Virus record (IMG/VR): IMGVR_UViG_3300046484_000120
Strand: one strand, 5' to 3'
Origin: a virus
DNA length: 27,620 bases
Numbering within the stretch: the stretch's first letter is position 1; each line of letters opens with the position of its first letter. A program made the translations under genes and the position numbers. This document shows positions 17,531-22,596 of the stretch, in pieces. The notes beneath the pieces are model-generated. The model saw nothing but the letters and a program-made list of their open reading frames with translations. It had not been told where the DNA came from and did no database searches.

Positions 17531-18052
17531 ATGATTAGTTACGAAAAAGCAGTCGATATTCAAACTAAAGCCGAGAAGGCGTATGCAAAAGCATCAGCGC
17601 AATTGCAAGAAGCCAATAGTACATTGGAAGCTTTGAAGCGTGAACTTGAAATTGAATGCAGTACTTGTCACAAGACAACAAAGGTTAAGGATATCGAACT
17701 AATCGCTAGAAAGTCAGGAGGATATCAAAGTTACGATCATGGAGAGTGGCAATATAACACTAGGGTATGTTGGGTTTGCAAACATTGCACAACTCCGCAA
17801 TCACTACCCAGTGAAACAGAAGGCCCGTTCGCAAAGAAGCCACCATTTAAATATGGCTTTGATCATTATGTCAAAGCTGTTCATGAGTGGTATTCTGATA
17901 ACGAACGTTGTCACGGGAGAGTTCTGCAATTATTAGGGCCACATCTACAAAGAGAAGAGGATCTTCTGCGCAAGAAAGAAAAGGAAAGAAAAATTGAAGA
18001 AGCTAAAAAATTACTTGCAGACGAGGGTATATTAGGTAATACTGAAGCATAA
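17531..18052 (+). CDS. hypothetical protein with CxxC...CxxC motifs and a C-terminal Lys/Glu-rich coiled-coil
   Basis: Track ORF 17489..18052 overlaps tRNA-Arg; trimmed to the ATG at 17531 preceded by AAGAGGA. Contains CSTCHK ... CWVCKHC. Confidence 0.5.
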   Translation: MISYEKAVDIQTKAEKAYAKASAQLQEANSTLEALKRELEIECSTCHKTTKVKDIELIARKSGGYQSYDHGEWQYNTRVCWVCKHCTTPQSLPSETEGPFAKKPPFKYGFDHYVKAVHEWYSDNERCHGRVLQLLGPHLQREEDLLRKKEKERKIEEAKKLLADEGILGNTEA

Positions 18053-18060
18053 TTTAGAAC

Positions 18061-18138
18061 GCCGATGTAGTTCAATTGGTAGAACGCCAGTTTCATAAGC
18101 TGGGTCTTGTGTGGGTTCGACTCCCTCTATCGGCACCA
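18061..18138 (+). tRNA. tRNA-Met (anticodon CAU); Ile2/lysidine type cannot be excluded
   Basis: Acceptor GCCGATG/TATCGGC; D arm GTTC-AATTGGTA-GAAC; anticodon arm CCAGT-TTCATAA-GCTGG; T loop TTCGACT; discriminator A; CCA encoded. Confidence 0.7.
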
Positions 18139-18209
18139 AATGTTTGACGATCTACTATATAGCCTGACCACCACACGCGAGCCGCTAGCGGCGGCGTGTA
18201 GGAATAGTT

Positions 18210-18365
18210 ATGGCAAATCACAAGCGGCGAAAGCCTAAGAATAGTAGATCTGGATGTTTGATGTGTAAGTATTGGAAGATTAATGGCTTCTCCCCAAAAG
18301 AGAAGATGAAGTTTTCCGAATACCGAAGATACTCTGATGCTGCGGAACAGATGAAGGACGTCTGA
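18210..18365 (+). CDS. small basic protein (51 aa)
   Basis: Hand-found ORF MANHKRRKPKNSRSGCLMCKYWKINGF...; AGGAA upstream. Confidence 0.3.
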   Translation: MANHKRRKPKNSRSGCLMCKYWKINGFSPKEKMKFSEYRRYSDAAEQMKDV

Positions 18366-18433
18366 TTCTAGCAGAAGGATAGGTAATATGTTTGATACTA
18401 GTTAGGTAACCTTCTCTTCAAAAAGGAGGTGCC

Positions 18434-18586
18434 TATGCAATATTGCAAATGGTGTGCTCTCGTTCGCGAGCTGAGTAAAGACGAAACTGGCCACAGTAAG
18501 GTGGGCATGTGCCGTCAATGCTACAGAAAAGAGCACAAGACGGATACGATAGTCGATAGAAAAAGACTAAGAAAATCCAGAAAGTA
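18434..18586 (+). CDS. small zinc-ribbon protein (50 aa)
   Basis: Strong RBS AAGGAGGTG 5 nt upstream: MQYCKWCALVRELSKDETGHSKVGMCRQCYRKEHKTDTIVDRKRLRKSRK (CxxC...CxxC). Confidence 0.45.
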
Positions 18587-18631
18587 AGTAAACTGGAACC
18601 GAGACGTTTGTCAACTCAAGCGTCTCGTCAC

Positions 18632-18704
18632 GGGGCTGTAGCTCAACTGGGAGAGCGCTAGACCTGCAATCTAGAGGTTGTCGGTTCGATTCCGATCAGC
18701 TCCA
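18632..18704 (+). tRNA. tRNA-Ala (anticodon UGC)
   Basis: Very similar to the remembered E. coli tRNA-Ala(UGC) 5' half (GGGGCTGTAGCTCAACTGGGAGAGCGC); G3·U70; anticodon arm CTAGA-CCTGCAA-TCTAG; T arm GTCGG-TTCGATT-CCGAT. Confidence 0.8.
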
Positions 18705-18709
18705 CTTAC

Positions 18710-18781
18710 GGGGTCGTGTATAGGGATACAGATTTCCTTTGCAAGGAAATTTTGCGAGTTCAATTCTCGACGGCTCCACCA
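18710..18781 (+). tRNA. second tRNA-Ala(UGC)-like gene with a reduced D arm
   Basis: Acceptor GGGGTCG/CGGCTCC (G3·U70); anticodon arm TTTCC-TTTGCAA-GGAAA; T loop TTCAATT; discriminator A plus encoded CCA. The D region is only 13 nt (GTAT-AGGG-ATAC), so it may be a pseudo-tRNA. Confidence 0.4.
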
Positions 18782-18783
18782 AC

Positions 18784-18855
18784 GCTAGCTTTGCGCAATG
18801 GTAACGCACTTGTCTTGTAAACAAGTCCATATCAGTTCGAATCTGATAGCTAGCT
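18784..18855 (+). tRNA. tRNA-Thr (anticodon UGU)
   Basis: Acceptor GCTAGCT/AGCTAGC; anticodon arm CTTGT-CTTGTAA-ACAAG; T arm ATCAG-TTCGAAT-CTGAT. Confidence 0.7.
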
Positions 18856-18861
18856 CTACTT

Positions 18862-18933
18862 GCTGACTTGGTGCTAACGGAAGCATGTCTGTTTCGTAAT
18901 CAGAAGGTATCAGTTCAATTCTGATAGTCAGCT
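18862..18933 (+). tRNA. tRNA-Thr (anticodon CGU)
   Basis: Acceptor GCTGACT/AGTCAGC; D arm GTGC-TAACGGAA-GCAT; anticodon arm TCTGT-TTCGTAA-TCAGA (one T·T mismatch); T arm ATCAG-TTCAATT-CTGAT. Confidence 0.6.
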
Positions 18934-19001
18934 CAACGGATAATTTTGTATTTATATAGGAGTAATAGTTAAGTAATCAAGTCGCTCCAAAGAGGTGATA
19001 A

Positions 19002-19205
19002 ATGGTTACGGTAAAAGAAGCAATCATAAGAGTGGTAGCTGAAAAGCTTCGAGAATATTACCTTCGTGGTATTAGAGATGCCCGCATTGAAGTATCTGAA
19101 AACTCAATGCCAAGTATTCTTGAAACATTTGATGCTGGAGATTTTGATAATGCATATGATCAACATGTCTGGCTAAAAATAGCAGAGAACATCATAGATA
19201 TGTAA
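19002..19205 (+). CDS. hypothetical protein (67 aa)
   Basis: Track ORF with RBS AAAGAGGTG upstream. Confidence 0.45.
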   Translation: MVTVKEAIIRVVAEKLREYYLRGIRDARIEVSENSMPSILETFDAGDFDNAYDQHVWLKIAENIIDM

Positions 19206-19208
19206 CAT

Positions 19209-19279
19209 GCCCATGTAGTATAATGACATTACATTTCCTTGGTAAGGAAAAAAATCTGGTTTGATTCCAGCCTTGGGCT
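19209..19279 (+). tRNA. degenerate tRNA-Thr(GGU)-like element (possible pseudo-tRNA)
   Basis: Acceptor GCCCATG/CTTGGGC (6/7 pairs); perfect anticodon arm TTTCC-TTGGTAA-GGAAA; T loop TTTGATT (C56 replaced); D loop lacks GG. Overlaps the annotated TTG start of the HNH gene. Confidence 0.3.
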
Positions 19280-19968
19280 CTAATAGTAGTTCGATTCAGA
19301 ATTCAGCTGATATATGCCAACGCATGAGAGCTGGATTAACATACGAAGAAGCCGGTAAACTTGGGGCAATTGCTTACGCCAAAACAGCAGCTACTCTAAA
19401 GCAACAAAGAGTAGATAATTGGAACAATAATCCTAAGCTTTGTAAGGCATGTAGTAGCGCAATTCCATACGAGAAGCGTCAGAATAATTTCTGCAGCCAC
19501 AAATGTTCGGCAGCATTTAATAACAAGGGAATTAGAAGAAATGGTAACGCACCAATAAGCTGCCTCAACTGCGCAACTGAAACTCACAACCCAAAGTTTT
19601 GCTCTTCTAATTGTGCGCTTGAATGGAATTGGAAAGAGGCAAAGCAGCATTTGATAGACACTGGAGTCGATGAATCTTGTGCTAATAAAATTGGTAAAAG
19701 ATATCTGATAGAATTGCACGGTAGATGCCAGCAGTGCTTGTCATCTGAGTGGCAAGGAAAAGCAATCCCGTTAGTTCTAGATCATATCAACGGAAACCCA
19801 TATGATAACTCATTACCAAATCTCAGGGTAATATGTCCTAATTGCGACGCTCAAACCCCAACCTTTGCAGGAAGGAATAGAGGCAATGGTAGGTTTGAGA
19901 GAGCGAAGCGTTATAAGTTTGAGAAAGATACATTTTGTGATCTAAACAGATCACAATGGAAACATTAA
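19261..19968 (+). CDS. HNH endonuclease (homing-endonuclease-like)
   Basis: C-terminal HNH motif LVLDHINGNPYDNSLPNLRVICPNCDAQ plus multiple CxxC zinc-knuckle pairs; the true start may be the ATG at about 19324. Confidence 0.6.
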   Translation: MIPALGSNSSSIQNSADICQRMRAGLTYEEAGKLGAIAYAKTAATLKQQRVDNWNNNPKLCKACSSAIPYEKRQNNFCSHKCSAAFNNKGIRRNGNAPISCLNCATETHNPKFCSSNCALEWNWKEAKQHLIDTGVDESCANKIGKRYLIELHGRCQQCLSSEWQGKAIPLVLDHINGNPYDNSLPNLRVICPNCDAQTPTFAGRNRGNGRFERAKRYKFEKDTFCDLNRSQWKH

Positions 19969-20633
19969 TTTGCATAAACCCGCATAGAAGTATGGTTTCC
20001 AAAATTTCTATCGTCGGGGTTGATGATAGTGTATGTCCCGCAGATCTAGTTGATATTTCACAGACCTTTCAGTTTGTTGAGTGGGGCGTTAATCTATGCC
20101 CTGAACAAGAACAGAGGCCTGGACACCCCTCATCCGAATGGCTTGAAGAACTACTACCTTGCGCTGAAGATCTCCGATTGCGCGGAATCCTGCACGGCCG
20201 CTGGGAAAATGATGTGCTTGAAGGTGCTCCATCGCTAAAGGAGGAACGTCCAGATATCTGGGCAGCTTTTAGATGGTTGCAAGTTGACATCAGGAAAGAT
20301 CCAAAGAAGATATTAACATCACTGCAACATTACCCAGATAAGATTATTCTATATACAAATCTAGAGCCAACATTTTCATCTAGGATTCTATTACCAAGAA
20401 ATAAGATATTTACATGTCTTGATTATTGTGGATACGATTTACTTGAGTCTGACCTTGATTGGTTGTGCCAAGAAACGAAGAAGTCATTTTGGGTAAGCAT
20501 CGAGGGATTTAGATCTGATGACGAGATTACCATGGACCTCTCTAGGGTAGTGAAGTTTTTGAATAGGGCAGAAGATTTTGTCACCCATGATAGTTTGGTG
20601 AAATCTCTGCGTCATAAGGGTTATCGAATATGA
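19956..20633 (+). CDS. hypothetical protein (225 aa)
   Basis: Track ORF, ATGA-coupled to the downstream HD-domain gene. Confidence 0.45.
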   Translation: METLICINPHRSMVSKISIVGVDDSVCPADLVDISQTFQFVEWGVNLCPEQEQRPGHPSSEWLEELLPCAEDLRLRGILHGRWENDVLEGAPSLKEERPDIWAAFRWLQVDIRKDPKKILTSLQHYPDKIILYTNLEPTFSSRILLPRNKIFTCLDYCGYDLLESDLDWLCQETKKSFWVSIEGFRSDDEITMDLSRVVKFLNRAEDFVTHDSLVKSLRHKGYRI

Positions 20634-21505
20634 TCCTGAACCACATCAAGCAAATCGCACATTCCAACTACTCCGAAGAGATTCGGCATGTAACGAAGGA
20701 AGAGGTAGCCGCCCTAAGTTCACTTGACCTATCAATGCTTCACTCAATCATGATTGGGCCGCATGTAAGTTTGGCGTTAGCGGTACTTCAGCGTATTGGT
20801 TTCTTTGAAGATCTCATCCCGGAGATTCAGGAAGGGCTTGACCTCAAGAGTTCGAAGCACTTCAAAGAAATCTGGCCGCATACGATTCAGGTAGTTGGAC
20901 AAACTCCGCCGGTTATCAACATTCGCTGGGCGGCACTGTTTCACGATCTGGGTAAGGCTAAGGCATTCGATATCAAGAACAACAAGGTTACATTCCATAA
21001 CCACGAACATATCAGCGCATACATCTTCGATCAGTTTGCAAAGCGTACTGGGATTTTCAGTAACGGACAGCGAAGATCTATCCGATTCCTTGTAGCCAAT
21101 TTGGGTTATGTTGAAGCGTATGATAGCTCTTGGACTGATACCGCCGTACGTAGGTTTGATAAGGAAGTTAGTATTTTTATTGATGACCTCTTGACTTTAT
21201 CCGAGGCTGATATTACAACTAGCAAACCGGAAAACAGAAGGAGGATCCTTCGCAGGATTCAAGAGCTGAGAGACCGTATTGCAGATATACGAGAAAAAGA
21301 CTCCAAGCAACGCCCGCTTCCAAAGGGATTGGGAAATGCTATCTCTGACAACCTAGGAATTCCGTTAGGGCCTAGAATTGGGCAGCTGATGAAAGAATTA
21401 GAGGGAAAGGTTGAGATAGGAGAAATATCGGCAAATGAAGATATCACATACTATATTGAACACCTAAGAAAGTCCCAAGTCGAGATTGCTAATACGCCAG
21501 CATAA
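20630..21505 (+). CDS. HD-domain phosphohydrolase resembling the C-terminal HD domain of class II CCA-adding enzymes / poly(A) polymerases
   Basis: H (HTIQV) ... AALFHDLGKA ... FHNHEHISA pattern, as in the HD domain of bacterial Cca (HxxxV ... LAALLHDIGK ... FHGHE). Confidence 0.5.
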   Translation: MILNHIKQIAHSNYSEEIRHVTKEEVAALSSLDLSMLHSIMIGPHVSLALAVLQRIGFFEDLIPEIQEGLDLKSSKHFKEIWPHTIQVVGQTPPVINIRWAALFHDLGKAKAFDIKNNKVTFHNHEHISAYIFDQFAKRTGIFSNGQRRSIRFLVANLGYVEAYDSSWTDTAVRRFDKEVSIFIDDLLTLSEADITTSKPENRRRILRRIQELRDRIADIREKDSKQRPLPKGLGNAISDNLGIPLGPRIGQLMKELEGKVEIGEISANEDITYYIEHLRKSQVEIANTPA

Positions 21506-21510
21506 GGTGT

Positions 21511-21912
21511 ATGTCAGAAACAATCATTATCGACAATAGCTTCTTCACTTTGTCATATAACCCAGATACCAAGATCGTTCATCACGAAATAAAAGTTGCC
21601 CTCACTCACCAGGCGTTCATTAACTTGCTCACTGGTGGAGAGGCGGCTTTGAAAAGCAACCAGGCTATCAAGTGGTTGTCAGATGACCGTAAGTACAGCT
21701 CTCTAACTGCCGAAAATATGGATTGGTCTGGCCAGTGGTTACCTGGGGCCATGGCAGAGACCGGCTGGAAATATTGGGCGAGGGTTGTTGATAAGATGCC
21801 ACCAAAGCCAATTCAGGATCAATTCGTTTCCGGTTATGGCAGTTACGGTCTTGTGGCAAAGATATTCACAGATATGTCTGCGGCAATGAAGTGGCTAGAA
21901 GATCAGGTGTAA
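21511..21912 (+). CDS. hypothetical protein (133 aa)
   Basis: Track ORF. Confidence 0.45.
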   Translation: MSETIIIDNSFFTLSYNPDTKIVHHEIKVALTHQAFINLLTGGEAALKSNQAIKWLSDDRKYSSLTAENMDWSGQWLPGAMAETGWKYWARVVDKMPPKPIQDQFVSGYGSYGLVAKIFTDMSAAMKWLEDQV

Positions 21913-22044
21913 GCTACTAATACTTTGGAATAATTATCTAACCTGTCTCTTGAACACAACGATGATAGTTGGTTGGAACAGGACAAACCACTAACCATGG
22001 TTTGTGGCCATACCATAGCAGAATAATTCAGGGTGGTCATTTTT

Positions 22045-22116
22045 GCGGGCGTAGTTCAGCGGTAGAACGCGATCCTTCCAAGTTCGATGTCAGGAGTTCG
22101 ATCCTCCTCGCCCGCT
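22045..22116 (+). tRNA. tRNA-Gly (anticodon UCC)
   Basis: Acceptor GCGGGCG/CGCCCGC; discriminator T; D arm GTTC-AGCGGTA-GAAC; anticodon arm CGATC-CTTCCAA-GTTCG; T arm AGGAG-TTCGATC-CTCCT. Confidence 0.75.
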
Positions 22117-22241
22117 CTACCAATAATCTGGAGTTCTAACATGGGTATTAAGAAACATAGAAGTATTAAGACGCATCGTGTTCCTGGTGGTGCTGGTAGT
22201 GGATCAAAAGTGATTCCAATCAAGAGAACTAGTTAATATTT

Positions 22242-22314
22242 GCGGGCGTAACTCAATTGGCAGAGTACCAGCTTCCCAAGCTGGAGGTTGAGGGTCCGAT
22301 GCCCTTCGCCCGCT
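22242..22314 (+). tRNA. tRNA-Gly (anticodon CCC)
   Basis: Same acceptor GCGGGCG/CGCCCGC and discriminator T; D arm ACTC-AATTGGCA-GAGT; anticodon arm CCAGC-TTCCCAA-GCTGG; T arm GAGGG-TCCGATG-CCCTT. Confidence 0.65.
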
Positions 22315-22399
22315 CTCCCACCGGCGGTGGGAACAAATGGTTCTTAAGTGAACTGTTTCTGACTGTCACGATGTGAAAGCAGCGATTGATGGTCATTTC

Positions 22400-22480
22400 G
22401 CGGGCGTAGTCTAATGGTATGACAACAGCCTTCCAAGCTGTCTCCGAAAGGAATTGAGAGTTCGAGTCTCTTCGCCCGCT
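22400..22480 (+). tRNA. tRNA-Gly(UCC)-like with an unusually long (~14 nt) variable region
   Basis: Same acceptor GCGGGCG/CGCCCGC and discriminator T; anticodon arm ACAGC-CTTCCAA-GCTGT; extra CTCCGAAAGGAATT before the T arm GAGAG-TTCGAGT-CTCTT; same upstream GGTCATTT(T/C) as the 22045 copy. Confidence 0.45.
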
Positions 22481-22490
22481 CTCAACCCAC

Positions 22491-22563
22491 GCGGGTAACT
22501 CCTCAATGGTGAGGTGCCTCGTTGCCAACGAGGAAGCGGCCAGTTCGATCCTGGTTACCCGCT
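22491..22563 (+). tRNA. tRNA-Gly (anticodon GCC)
   Basis: Acceptor GCGGGTA/TACCCGC; D arm CCTC-AATGGT-GAGG; anticodon arm CCTCG-TTGCCAA-CGAGG; T arm CAG-TTCGATC-CTG region; discriminator T. Exact ends are uncertain by 1 nt. Confidence 0.55.
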
Positions 22564-22596
22564 CAAACAACACAACGCATATCCTGGAATTATACC

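Follow-up and report, generated by a model that had tools for sequence, protein, structure and literature searches.

We report here a glycine transfer RNA (tRNA) gene with a long, hairpin-forming variable arm in IMG/VR virus record IMGVR_UViG_3300046484_000120, a stretch of DNA of 27,620 nucleotides (nt), which we call the window and which is part of a large uncultivated phage. The gene, Gly3, is the third of four tandem tRNA-Gly genes and keeps the fold and the identity elements of a tRNA-Gly(UCC). Long variable arms in bacteria are, by textbook knowledge, confined to Leu, Ser, Tyr and selenocysteine (Sec) tRNAs; a glycine tRNA with such an arm recurs in viral arrays of many environments and is nearly absent from ~185,000 prokaryotic genomes. 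By sequence comparison, long-arm tRNA-Gly is a recurrent, essentially virus-restricted class which nearly always has a UCC anticodon, and we propose that its arm may shield a translating tRNA from host defences. No description of long-arm class-I phage tRNAs was found in the open-access literature; a prior one may exist.

ARAGORN called 13 tRNA genes in the window, every one on the + strand. Four of them are tRNA-Gly genes within 520 base pairs (bp), at 22045-22564, where ARAGORN and Rfam RF00005 agree with each other and with the anticodons (UCC, CCC, UCC, GCC) that a preliminary description had read by eye. All four aligned over model positions 1-71 and scored above the RF00005 gathering threshold of 29 bits:

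22045..22117, + strand: Gly1, tRNA-Gly(UCC), normal length (ARAGORN; Rfam 63.3 bits)
22242..22315, + strand: Gly2, tRNA-Gly(CCC) (ARAGORN; Rfam 60.7 bits)
22400..22481, + strand: Gly3, tRNA-Gly(UCC) with long variable arm, five-arm fold (ARAGORN; Rfam 60.9 bits)
22442..22455, + strand: variable arm of Gly3, 14 nt, CUCCGAAAGGAAUU, between the anticodon and T stems
22491..22564, + strand: Gly4, tRNA-Gly(GCC), divergent (ARAGORN; Rfam 37.1 bits)

Bacterial glycine identity elements are U73, G1:C72, C2:G71, C35 and C36 (PMC9976931), and Gly1-Gly4 carry the entire set. None of the four encodes its CCA end. The variable region is 5 nt in each of Gly1, Gly2 and Gly4, the class-I condition of 4-5 nt with no helix. 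Small departures from the consensus occur in two of these: Gly1 has a U30:U40 mismatch in the anticodon stem, and Gly4 has A8 and a U10:U25 mismatch, with a D arm like that of the long-arm family member L010. The acceptor stem GCGGGCG/CGCCCGC is common to Gly1, Gly2 and Gly3, and U73 is found in all four genes. This identity had been described correctly beforehand and had been taken as a sign of local duplication. However, the chromosomal tRNA-Gly(CCC) of E. coli has the same stem and U73; a shared acceptor of this kind is the ordinary bacterial tRNA-Gly stem, built of glycine identity positions, and is therefore no evidence of duplication.

The ~14 nt that had been noticed between the anticodon and T arms of Gly3 are indeed there, laid out as C, UCC-GAAA-GGA and AUU, that is, a 3-bp stem closed by a GNRA tetraloop with short flanks. 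Folded alone, Gly3 has as its minimum free energy structure a five-arm cloverleaf that includes the UCC-GAAA-GGA hairpin (z = -2.65). Its geometry is the standard 7/5, with a 7-bp acceptor and a 5-bp T stem, and G1:C72, C2:G71, G3:C70, C35, C36 and U73 are in place. The acceptor is perfectly paired over 7 bp and the anticodon stem over 5 bp, and U8, G18G19, U33, the T-loop UUCGA and G53:C61 are retained; the D stem has only 3 pairs and a U13:U22 mismatch. With 14 nt and a 3-bp stem, the variable region falls outside the class-I range and inside that of class II (>10 nt, stem of 3-7 bp; here UCC/GGA), yet the UCC anticodon and U73 are not those of class-II tRNAs, which read Leu, Ser or Tyr codons and carry A73 or G73. 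Neither does the gene have the 8/4 or 9/3 geometry of an allo-tRNA, nor the broken stems, core loss and low score of a tRNA pseudogene. It is a phage long-variable-arm tRNA-Gly, a class delimited in the present analysis by a glycine-type acceptor with U73, an NCC anticodon that is nearly always UCC, 7/5 geometry and a variable arm of 10-17 nt whose short stem is in most cases capped by a GNRA tetraloop.

The concepts that come closest to Gly3 are nematode nev-tRNAs, allo-tRNAs and the SP15 tRNA-Tyr arm. With canonical tRNA-Gly(UCC), such as E. coli glyT or the T4 tRNA-Gly, it shares the 7/5 cloverleaf, the UCC loop, U73, G1:C72, C2:G71 and G3:C70, and with E. coli tRNA-Gly(CCC) an identical acceptor stem; where the canonical tRNA-Gly(UCC) has 4-5 unpaired variable nucleotides, however, Gly3 has a 14-nt hairpin, and G45, which normally completes the (G10-Y25):G45 triple, has been replaced. 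With bacterial class-II tRNAs (Leu, Ser, Tyr) it has in common an arm of more than 10 nt, a 3-bp stem and a five-armed cloverleaf, whereas its anticodon, U73 and acceptor pairs are those of glycine, and the stem in its family is short (2-3 bp) and typically GNRA-capped. Allo-tRNAs and the (8/4) tRNA-Ser/tRNA-His are likewise non-canonical, occur in metagenomic phage clusters and are in some cases long-armed (PMC5389517), but they have 8/4 or 9/3 geometry and Sec-like D arms. The nematode nev-tRNA-Gly(CCC) and nev-tRNA-Ile(UAU), and the noncanonical variable-arm (V-arm) tRNAs of eukaryotes, combine a glycine-box anticodon with a long arm; they are eukaryotic and reportedly tRNA-Leu-derived and leucine-charged, whereas the body and identity elements of Gly3 are those of glycine (PMC3333845; PMC4300185).

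IMG/VR was scanned with the pattern GCGGG..CTNCCAA..(long V)..TTCRA..CCCGC, in which an acceptor of glycine type is followed by an NCC anticodon loop, then, after a long gap, by a T loop. This C32 pattern returned 67 viral loci and a U32 variant 20 more. All 87 matches are tRNA-shaped; the anticodon is UCC in 84, GCC in three and CCC in none, and U73, at a position left free in the pattern, is present in 85, the other two having A73. Many of the loci sit within dense tRNA arrays on contigs of 100-540 kb. Cultured carriers are Serratia phage BF, Yersinia phage fHe-Yen9-04, Erwinia phages pEa_SNUABM_12/47/50 and Erwinia phage Hallingskeid, and the long-arm genes of these cultured jumbo phages are annotated just as tRNA-Gly; that of BF lies at KY630187 306704-306788. 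The scans demanded a GCGGG/CCCGC acceptor, whereas the long-arm gene of Hallingskeid has the acceptor GAAGAUG, so the class is wider than the scan pattern. A control scan for the normal variable-loop length gave at least 120 loci, so that only a minority of the tRNA-Gly genes of phages have the long arm.

In the genomes of 185,579 prokaryotic species (596 Gb in all), the same C32 pattern matched 75 times; of these matches, ~65 are random non-tRNA hits, four are normal tRNAs with masked Ns and ~6 are genuine. Four of the genuine cases lie in dense phage-like arrays of 4-17 tRNAs, one of them with four tandem Gly genes as in the window. On a 3.3-kb contig assigned to a Thioploca metagenome-assembled genome (MAG), a tandem of four tRNA-Gly genes (L107, 478-921) runs UCC-long, GCC, GCC, UCC within an array of eight tRNAs; the contig is probably viral and was assigned to the bacterium in binning, and its layout closely parallels that of the window. 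Solitary long-arm tRNA-Gly(UCC) genes, outside arrays, were seen on a 97-kb contig of a Gemmataceae MAG (L136, 4429-4514) and on a 2.5-Mb contig of a Dehalococcoidia (L095, 4632-4712), which are possible rare cellular examples; the Gemmataceae gene has a 5-bp, GCAA-capped arm and A73.

The variable regions of the family measure 10-17 nt and typically consist of 1-2 nt, a 2-3-bp stem with a GNRA tetraloop, and 3-4 nt. A GNRA tetraloop on a stem of 2 bp or more was found in 26 of 50 unique variable regions, against a mean of 1.2 and a maximum of 5 in 1000 shuffles, and 12 distinct stem sequences occur. Pair counts were anchored on the loop, as the arms were out of register when 31 members were aligned with MAFFT. 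Counted in this way over the 31 members, the second stem pair is AU in 11, GC in 8, UA in 7 and CG in 5; the third pair is formed in 23/31 and the fourth in 2/21, and sliding the 3' partner by one base abolishes the pairing. RNAalifold, applied to seven members that share the 14-nt layout of Gly3, returned a five-arm cloverleaf in which all three arm pairs are kept in 7/7, with 1, 3 and 3 compensatory double changes. This covariation in the stem, together with the spread of the arm over very different phages, shows that it is under selection. In one subfamily, to which the cultured Enterobacterales phages belong, the arm is nearly fixed as AGGCGAAUAG(U/G)UYMC, and the arm layout of Gly3 recurs in L028, L044, L071, L279, L292 and L283. 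Over the 46 core positions that can be compared, there are 6 differences between Gly3 and its nearest long-arm relative (L016) and 8 between Gly3 and Gly2, counts that the choice of search pattern biases. The arm may have grown on the spot, from AGGUU to CUCCGAAAGGAAUU, or may have come with a cassette. An intron or other excised insert was considered as its source and rejected on general grounds, as the insert is a 3-bp tetraloop hairpin without a bulge-helix-bulge shape; in bacteria, the introns of tRNA genes are of group I and interrupt the anticodon loop.

The preference for UCC is strong, though not absolute. In the C32 scan all 67 long-arm genes have UCC, and we rejected the conclusion that every long-arm tRNA-Gly does so: the pattern fixed C32, whereas Gly-GCC and Gly-CCC have U32, so the 67/67 count is partly an artefact. 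The U32 rescan brought the three GCC genes to light, and the normal-length C32 control likewise gave UCC in 107/107 among the matches listed. A comparison within the same arrays gives 13 UCC, 28 GCC and 5 CCC for normal-length tRNA-Gly against 84:3 for the long-arm form (p = 3e-17), and the skew persists when only GCGGG acceptors are taken (normal-length, 10 UCC against 10 other; p = 1e-6). In the arrays of the 67 C32-scan loci, long arms also occur on other class-I tRNAs:

Lys-UUU: long arm in 6/18
Thr-UGU: long arm in 5/17
Thr-CGU and Thr-GGU together: long arm in 0/19
Asn-GUU: long arm in 3/6

Occasional cases there are Cys-GCA, Pro-UGG, Glu-UUC and Ala-UGC, whereas no long arm was seen on the tRNAs for Arg (38), Val (28), Gln (16) or Asp (12). 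Class-I tRNAs other than Gly with a variable region of at least 9 nt number 25/318 beside long-arm Gly and 13/499 beside normal Gly (p = 9e-4), or 23/313 and 6/492 once Ile-UAU is left out (p = 8e-6), and they are mostly Lys-UUU, Thr-UGU and Asn-GUU. The long-arm trait thus belongs to the phage as a whole. A tRNA-Ile(UAU) with an arm of 21-25 nt is frequent in phage arrays with or without long-arm Gly (L160, L195, L218, L223, L233, L235, L257, L012 and L020); in both of the array sets compared above it is common, with an arm of 22-24 nt.

What might the arm do? We give roughly even odds to the reading that Gly3 works as a decoder of GGA and GGG and that the arm keeps it safe from defences by which the host attacks tRNAs. 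The Gly tRNAs would be transcribed behind repeated leader cassettes, trimmed by RNase P and 3' nucleases, completed by a CCA-adding enzyme and charged by the host glycyl-tRNA synthetase (GlyRS), and phage translation would use them, GGA and GGG decoding included. The arm, which projects beside the anticodon stem on its 3' strand, the place of cleavage by several defence nucleases, AriB and Old among them, would make the phage GGA decoder a poor substrate for an enzyme that inactivates the short-loop tRNA-Gly(UCC) of the host, so that phage translation would go on after the host tRNA is lost. Gly1 would then be the plain supply and Gly3 a resistant backup.

Three lines of evidence lead us to favour protection. 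Phage tRNAs are established counter-measures to PARIS, Retron-Eco7, P2 Old and PrrC (PMC12409363, PMC11555353, PMC12445682). There is also a precedent for an arm: Retron-Eco7 PtuAB cleaves host tRNA-Tyr in the variable loop, and the tRNA-Tyr of phage SP15 needs its 5-nt longer variable loop to neutralise Retron-Eco7 (PMC12673091). Moreover, Lys-UUU, Thr-UGU and Asn-GUU, the target set of the PARIS nuclease AriB (PMC12409363), are the isoacceptors that share the long arm with glycine, and the arm lies near the cut site. The parallels have their limits. The tRNA-Tyr of SP15, a T5-like phage, is a phage isoacceptor with a longer-than-host arm that is experimentally required against a tRNA-cleaving defence (PMC12673091; PMC11555353), but it belongs to class II already and gains 5 nt only, whereas Gly3 joins a whole arm to a class-I body and the matching defence is hypothetical. 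[quoted passage not shown]

Several points weigh against this proposal. No defence nuclease specific for tRNA-Gly(UCC) was found in the open-access literature, and the toxins known to act on tRNA-Gly, namely TacT, AtaT2 and FaRel2, read the acceptor end, which the arm leaves unaltered. The closest relatives of the window (L150, L001, L151, L002 and L003) have normal-length Gly tRNAs only, so the arm is dispensable in this lineage. Expression, processing, charging and decoding of the long-arm tRNAs are predictions from sequence, and bacterial GlyRS would have to tolerate a long arm. The original count of 67/67 UCC was in part inflated by the C32 in the pattern, and the enrichment tests are confounded by differences in phage type and size between the case and the control loci. 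More tentative still is a broader version, that phages have repeatedly refitted class-I tRNAs (Gly-UCC, Lys-UUU, Thr-UGU, Asn-GUU) with a GNRA-capped arm as a general counter-measure, making them resistant to host tRNA-directed nucleases or toxins or telling them apart from the targets of these, with Gly3 as one instance.

The rival explanations are taken here in order of plausibility. The arm may serve as a self-mark by which a phage protein, be it a modification enzyme, a CCA-adding or repair enzyme, a processing factor or a synthetase, recognises a tRNA that still translates, so that the phage could handle its own tRNAs in another way than those of the host. We hold this to be unlikely, though long arms do occur on several isoacceptors within the same phages, and the nearly fixed arm of one subfamily, AGGCGAAUAGUUYAC, kept across divergent tRNA bodies, suggests sequence-specific reading. 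GNRA tetraloops are classic protein- and RNA-docking motifs, and the island around the array encodes a tRNA-methyltransferase-like protein (phrog_19153, by PHROG annotation) as well as a CCA-enzyme-like protein. Against it, no family besides homing endonucleases is strongly enriched beside long-arm tRNAs in flanks of up to 15 kb, and stems vary so freely in most members that a reader must recognise shape and not sequence. Somewhat less probable is a tolerated or compensating variant, near-neutral or stabilising cores weakened by fast evolution, that spread with mobile cassettes without a specific function. The weak D stem of Gly3 (3 pairs and U13:U22), the odd D arms of many family members, the enrichment of homing endonucleases, which move tRNA cassettes, and the absence of the arm from close relatives all fit such a variant. 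Neutral insertions would not, however, converge on GNRA hairpins at the frequency seen (26/50 against 1.2 expected), and neither compensatory stem changes, nor a skew to Gly-UCC, Lys-UUU, Thr-UGU and Asn-GUU, nor near-absence from the prokaryotic genomes would be expected of them.

It is improbable that Gly3 is charged with glycine yet stands outside translation, whether it donates glycyl groups to a transferase of the phage or acts as a regulator or decoy, with translation left to Gly1; a tRNA-like RNA with another role, as the preliminary description had suggested, is nonetheless conceivable. The array does hold two UCC genes, one canonical and one long-arm, as do at least 13/67 C32-pattern loci, and there are models for such a division: phage Mu Mom modifies DNA adenine using Gly-tRNA-Gly (PMC13219725), and staphylococci reportedly keep separate tRNA-Gly species for cell-wall synthesis (PMC12256121). 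In most of the 67 loci, though, the long-arm gene is the sole nearby UCC gene, and a mere donor would not need the canonical anticodon loop and UCC that are kept; Mom accepts every tRNA-Gly isoacceptor (PMC13219725), no Mom-like or Fem-like gene was seen among the window proteins, and long-arm Lys, Thr and Asn tRNAs would be left unexplained. That Gly3 is a decaying duplicate, a pseudogene with an insertion in its variable loop, had also been raised. In its favour are a redundant second UCC gene, relatives without the long form and one D-stem mismatch. We regard it as very improbable, contradicted as it is by a score of 60.9 bits, equal to that of the neighbours, by an intact fold with stems and core nucleotides preserved, and by an insertion that is a clean tetraloop hairpin of the same design as in the widespread covarying family of 87 viral homologues. 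Least credible of all is recoding of GGA, in which the arm lets the leucyl-, seryl- or tyrosyl-tRNA synthetase charge a UCC tRNA. The arm (14 nt, 3-bp stem) is within the range of bacterial tRNA-Leu and tRNA-Tyr, and leucylation in vitro is reported for V-arm tRNAs of nematodes that have Gly anticodons (PMC3333845, PMC4300185); but Leu and Tyr need A73 and Ser G73 (PMC7609411), whereas Gly3 and 85/87 viral members have U73, the glycine set G1:C72, C2:G71, G3:C70, C35 and C36 is kept in full, and a canonical Gly-UCC tRNA 280 bp upstream would compete.

As a whole, the array is a complete GGN decoding set, with two UCC genes for GGA/GGG, CCC for GGG and GCC for GGU/GGC, and a tandem Gly array as such is ordinary for a large phage. 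The suggestion that the tRNA families match an AT-rich codon usage proved overstated, since the window has 43% GC, or 40% at third codon positions, and even the rare GGG (14% of Gly codons) is covered; what stands is that the duplicated UCC and UGC genes match the most used codons, GGA (36% of Gly codons) and GCA (31% of Ala codons).

Relatives with the same gene order and 62-85% protein identity were found in IMG/VR and JGI metagenomes (L001/L004/L149, L150, L151, L002/L152 and L003), while blastn found no GenBank phage close at the DNA level. Their Gly arrays differ from that of the window in number and order:

Window: UCC / CCC / UCC-long / GCC
L150: UCC / UCC / GCC
L001 and L151: GCC / UCC
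L002: UCC / GCC
L003: UCC

Such differences point to rapid cassette turnover at a fixed site between a CCA-enzyme-like gene and a DUF5856/Dps-like gene. Gly1 has an orthologue, L150_A, 96% identical, with a compensatory D-stem change from G10:C25 to A10:U25. Gly2(CCC) has a positional orthologue, L150_B(UCC), 86% identical, so that the switch of anticodon proposed in the preliminary description did occur, although it took two substitutions in the loop (TTCCCAA against CTTCCAA) and not one. The 5' flank of Gly3 and the 3' flank of Gly4 correspond to the slot of a single GCC gene in L150 and of a glyT-like UCC gene in L001/L151; with flanks matching in this way, the Gly3-Gly4 pair seems to have been inserted into one slot or to have replaced its contents.

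Two noncoding leaders and a small open reading frame (ORF) accompany the array:

21960..22044, + strand: leader 1, noncoding, with hairpin ACAAACCA...TGGTTTGT and GGTCATTTT at its end, abutting Gly1
22141..22236, + strand: 31-codon ORF MGIKKHRSIKTHRVPGGAGSGSKVIPIKRTS, a very basic peptide in the Gly1-Gly2 spacer, GGAG 9 nt upstream, gene status uncertain
22316..22399, + strand: leader 2, paralogue of leader 1, starting with hairpin TCCCACC-GGC-GGTGGGA and with GGTCATTTC at its end, abutting Gly3

The leaders, ~80 nt long, align with each other and with those of L001, L150 and L151, and such elements are present in all relatives; a hairpin, ACAAAC...GUUUGU, whose inner pairs covary, is conserved among them, and their last nucleotides are GGTCATTT(T/C). 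The element GGTCATTT occurs exactly twice in the window, directly 5' of Gly1 and Gly3. By itself this 8-mer is not significant (at least two matches in 37/100 shuffles), but it is the 3' end of the leader, and the shared leader that had been pointed out before is thus part of a real repeated cassette element of ~80 nt. No sigma-70-like promoters or terminators were found around the array, and the leaders could therefore be a phage-specific promoter or processing signal. The ORF MGIKKHRSIKTHRVPGGAGSGSKVIPIKRTS is absent from L150, the closest relative, whose spacer is 31 nt. Similar small basic or zinc-ribbon ORFs lie between upstream tRNAs, at 18211-18366 and 18436-18587.

The tRNA island as a whole spans 17176-22564 and contains or adjoins the following further features:

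15906..16397, + strand: HD_4 protein, small alarmone/(p)ppApp hydrolase-like (PDB 7smg, E = 3e-25; RelA/SpoT hydrolase domains), just upstream of the island
17176..19280, + strand: upstream island with Ala-GGC, Arg-UCU, Met, Ala-UGC twice, Thr-UGU, Thr-CGU and Thr-GGU (ARAGORN, Rfam)
19261..19968, + strand: HNH homing-endonuclease-like gene (phrog_10822, E = 3e-21), within the island
20630..21505, + strand: HD-domain protein corresponding to the C-terminal two thirds of CCA tRNA nucleotidyltransferase (TIGR02692 positions 197-457 of 466, E = 2e-27; PDB 3wfo)

The upstream tRNAs are interspersed with small ORFs, and their order is kept in L150 and L001. The Ala (GGC, UGC, UGC) and Thr (UGU, CGU, GGU) sets named in the preliminary description are called and complete, and Thr-GGU, which had been thought a remnant, scores 51.8 bits; the second Ala-UGC is weak (31.4 bits) and is conserved in L150. 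Around long-arm Gly genes the most enriched families are zinc-ribbon HNH/DUF559 proteins (19/86 case against 7/118 control loci) and GIY-YIG proteins (15 against 6). Homologues of the window HNH gene belong to the most enriched family, with further loci such as L285 and L282. Homing endonucleases were the only protein partners clearly enriched in flanks of up to 15 kb, and their enrichment fits a shuffling of tRNA cassettes from phage to phage that is driven by these endonucleases. Genes for RNA ligase and Pth2-like proteins lie near other long-arm arrays at 5-6 loci, against 0 control loci, and a few NADAR-like genes were seen near long-arm tRNAs.

The product of 20630-21505 has no recognisable catalytic head, and an overlapping upstream ORF (19956-20633, + strand) has no detectable homologue; together, 19956-21505 could encode a split or highly divergent CCA-adding enzyme. 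The candidate is relevant because 11/13 tRNA genes of the window lack an encoded CCA. The phage with the HD_4 hydrolase-like gene also holds complete Gly and Thr tRNA sets. Phage small alarmone hydrolases reverse the tRNA pyrophosphorylation caused by toxSAS enzymes, one of which targets tRNA-Gly and tRNA-Thr.

Further upstream, a 91-nt tRNA with a CUA (amber-reading) anticodon lies at 10094-10184 (+ strand; 53.4 bits), labelled 'Pyl' by ARAGORN. Its shape is that of class II, the variable stem (GCAGCC-GAGA-GGCUGC) being 6 bp long, and together with A73 this makes it Leu- or Tyr-like; it may serve recoded genes elsewhere in the genome. Stop-codon recoding within the window was considered and rejected: the standard code is coherent, TAG ends 3/27 genes and readthrough of TAG brings no evident gain in long ORFs. 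The window also encodes a 712-amino-acid protein with Major Vault Protein shoulder and repeat domains (4929-7067, + strand; E = 9e-28), listed together with 4478-4864, which among phages matches just three, all huge and uncultured (LR756500, LR756501 and LR756503; 462-735 kb), at ~42% identity.

To conclude, class-I phage tRNAs of 80-90 nt should not be dismissed by annotators as pseudogenes, and the cultured jumbo phages of Serratia, Yersinia and Erwinia make the idea of a functional arm directly testable. If the arm is a general counter-measure, there should be an undiscovered defence that acts on the tRNA-Gly(UCC) of the host. What is known so far of the arms race over tRNAs between phages and bacterial immunity concerns mainly point changes in anticodon arms; an arm that acts as a shield or as a self-mark would add a structural strategy to it.

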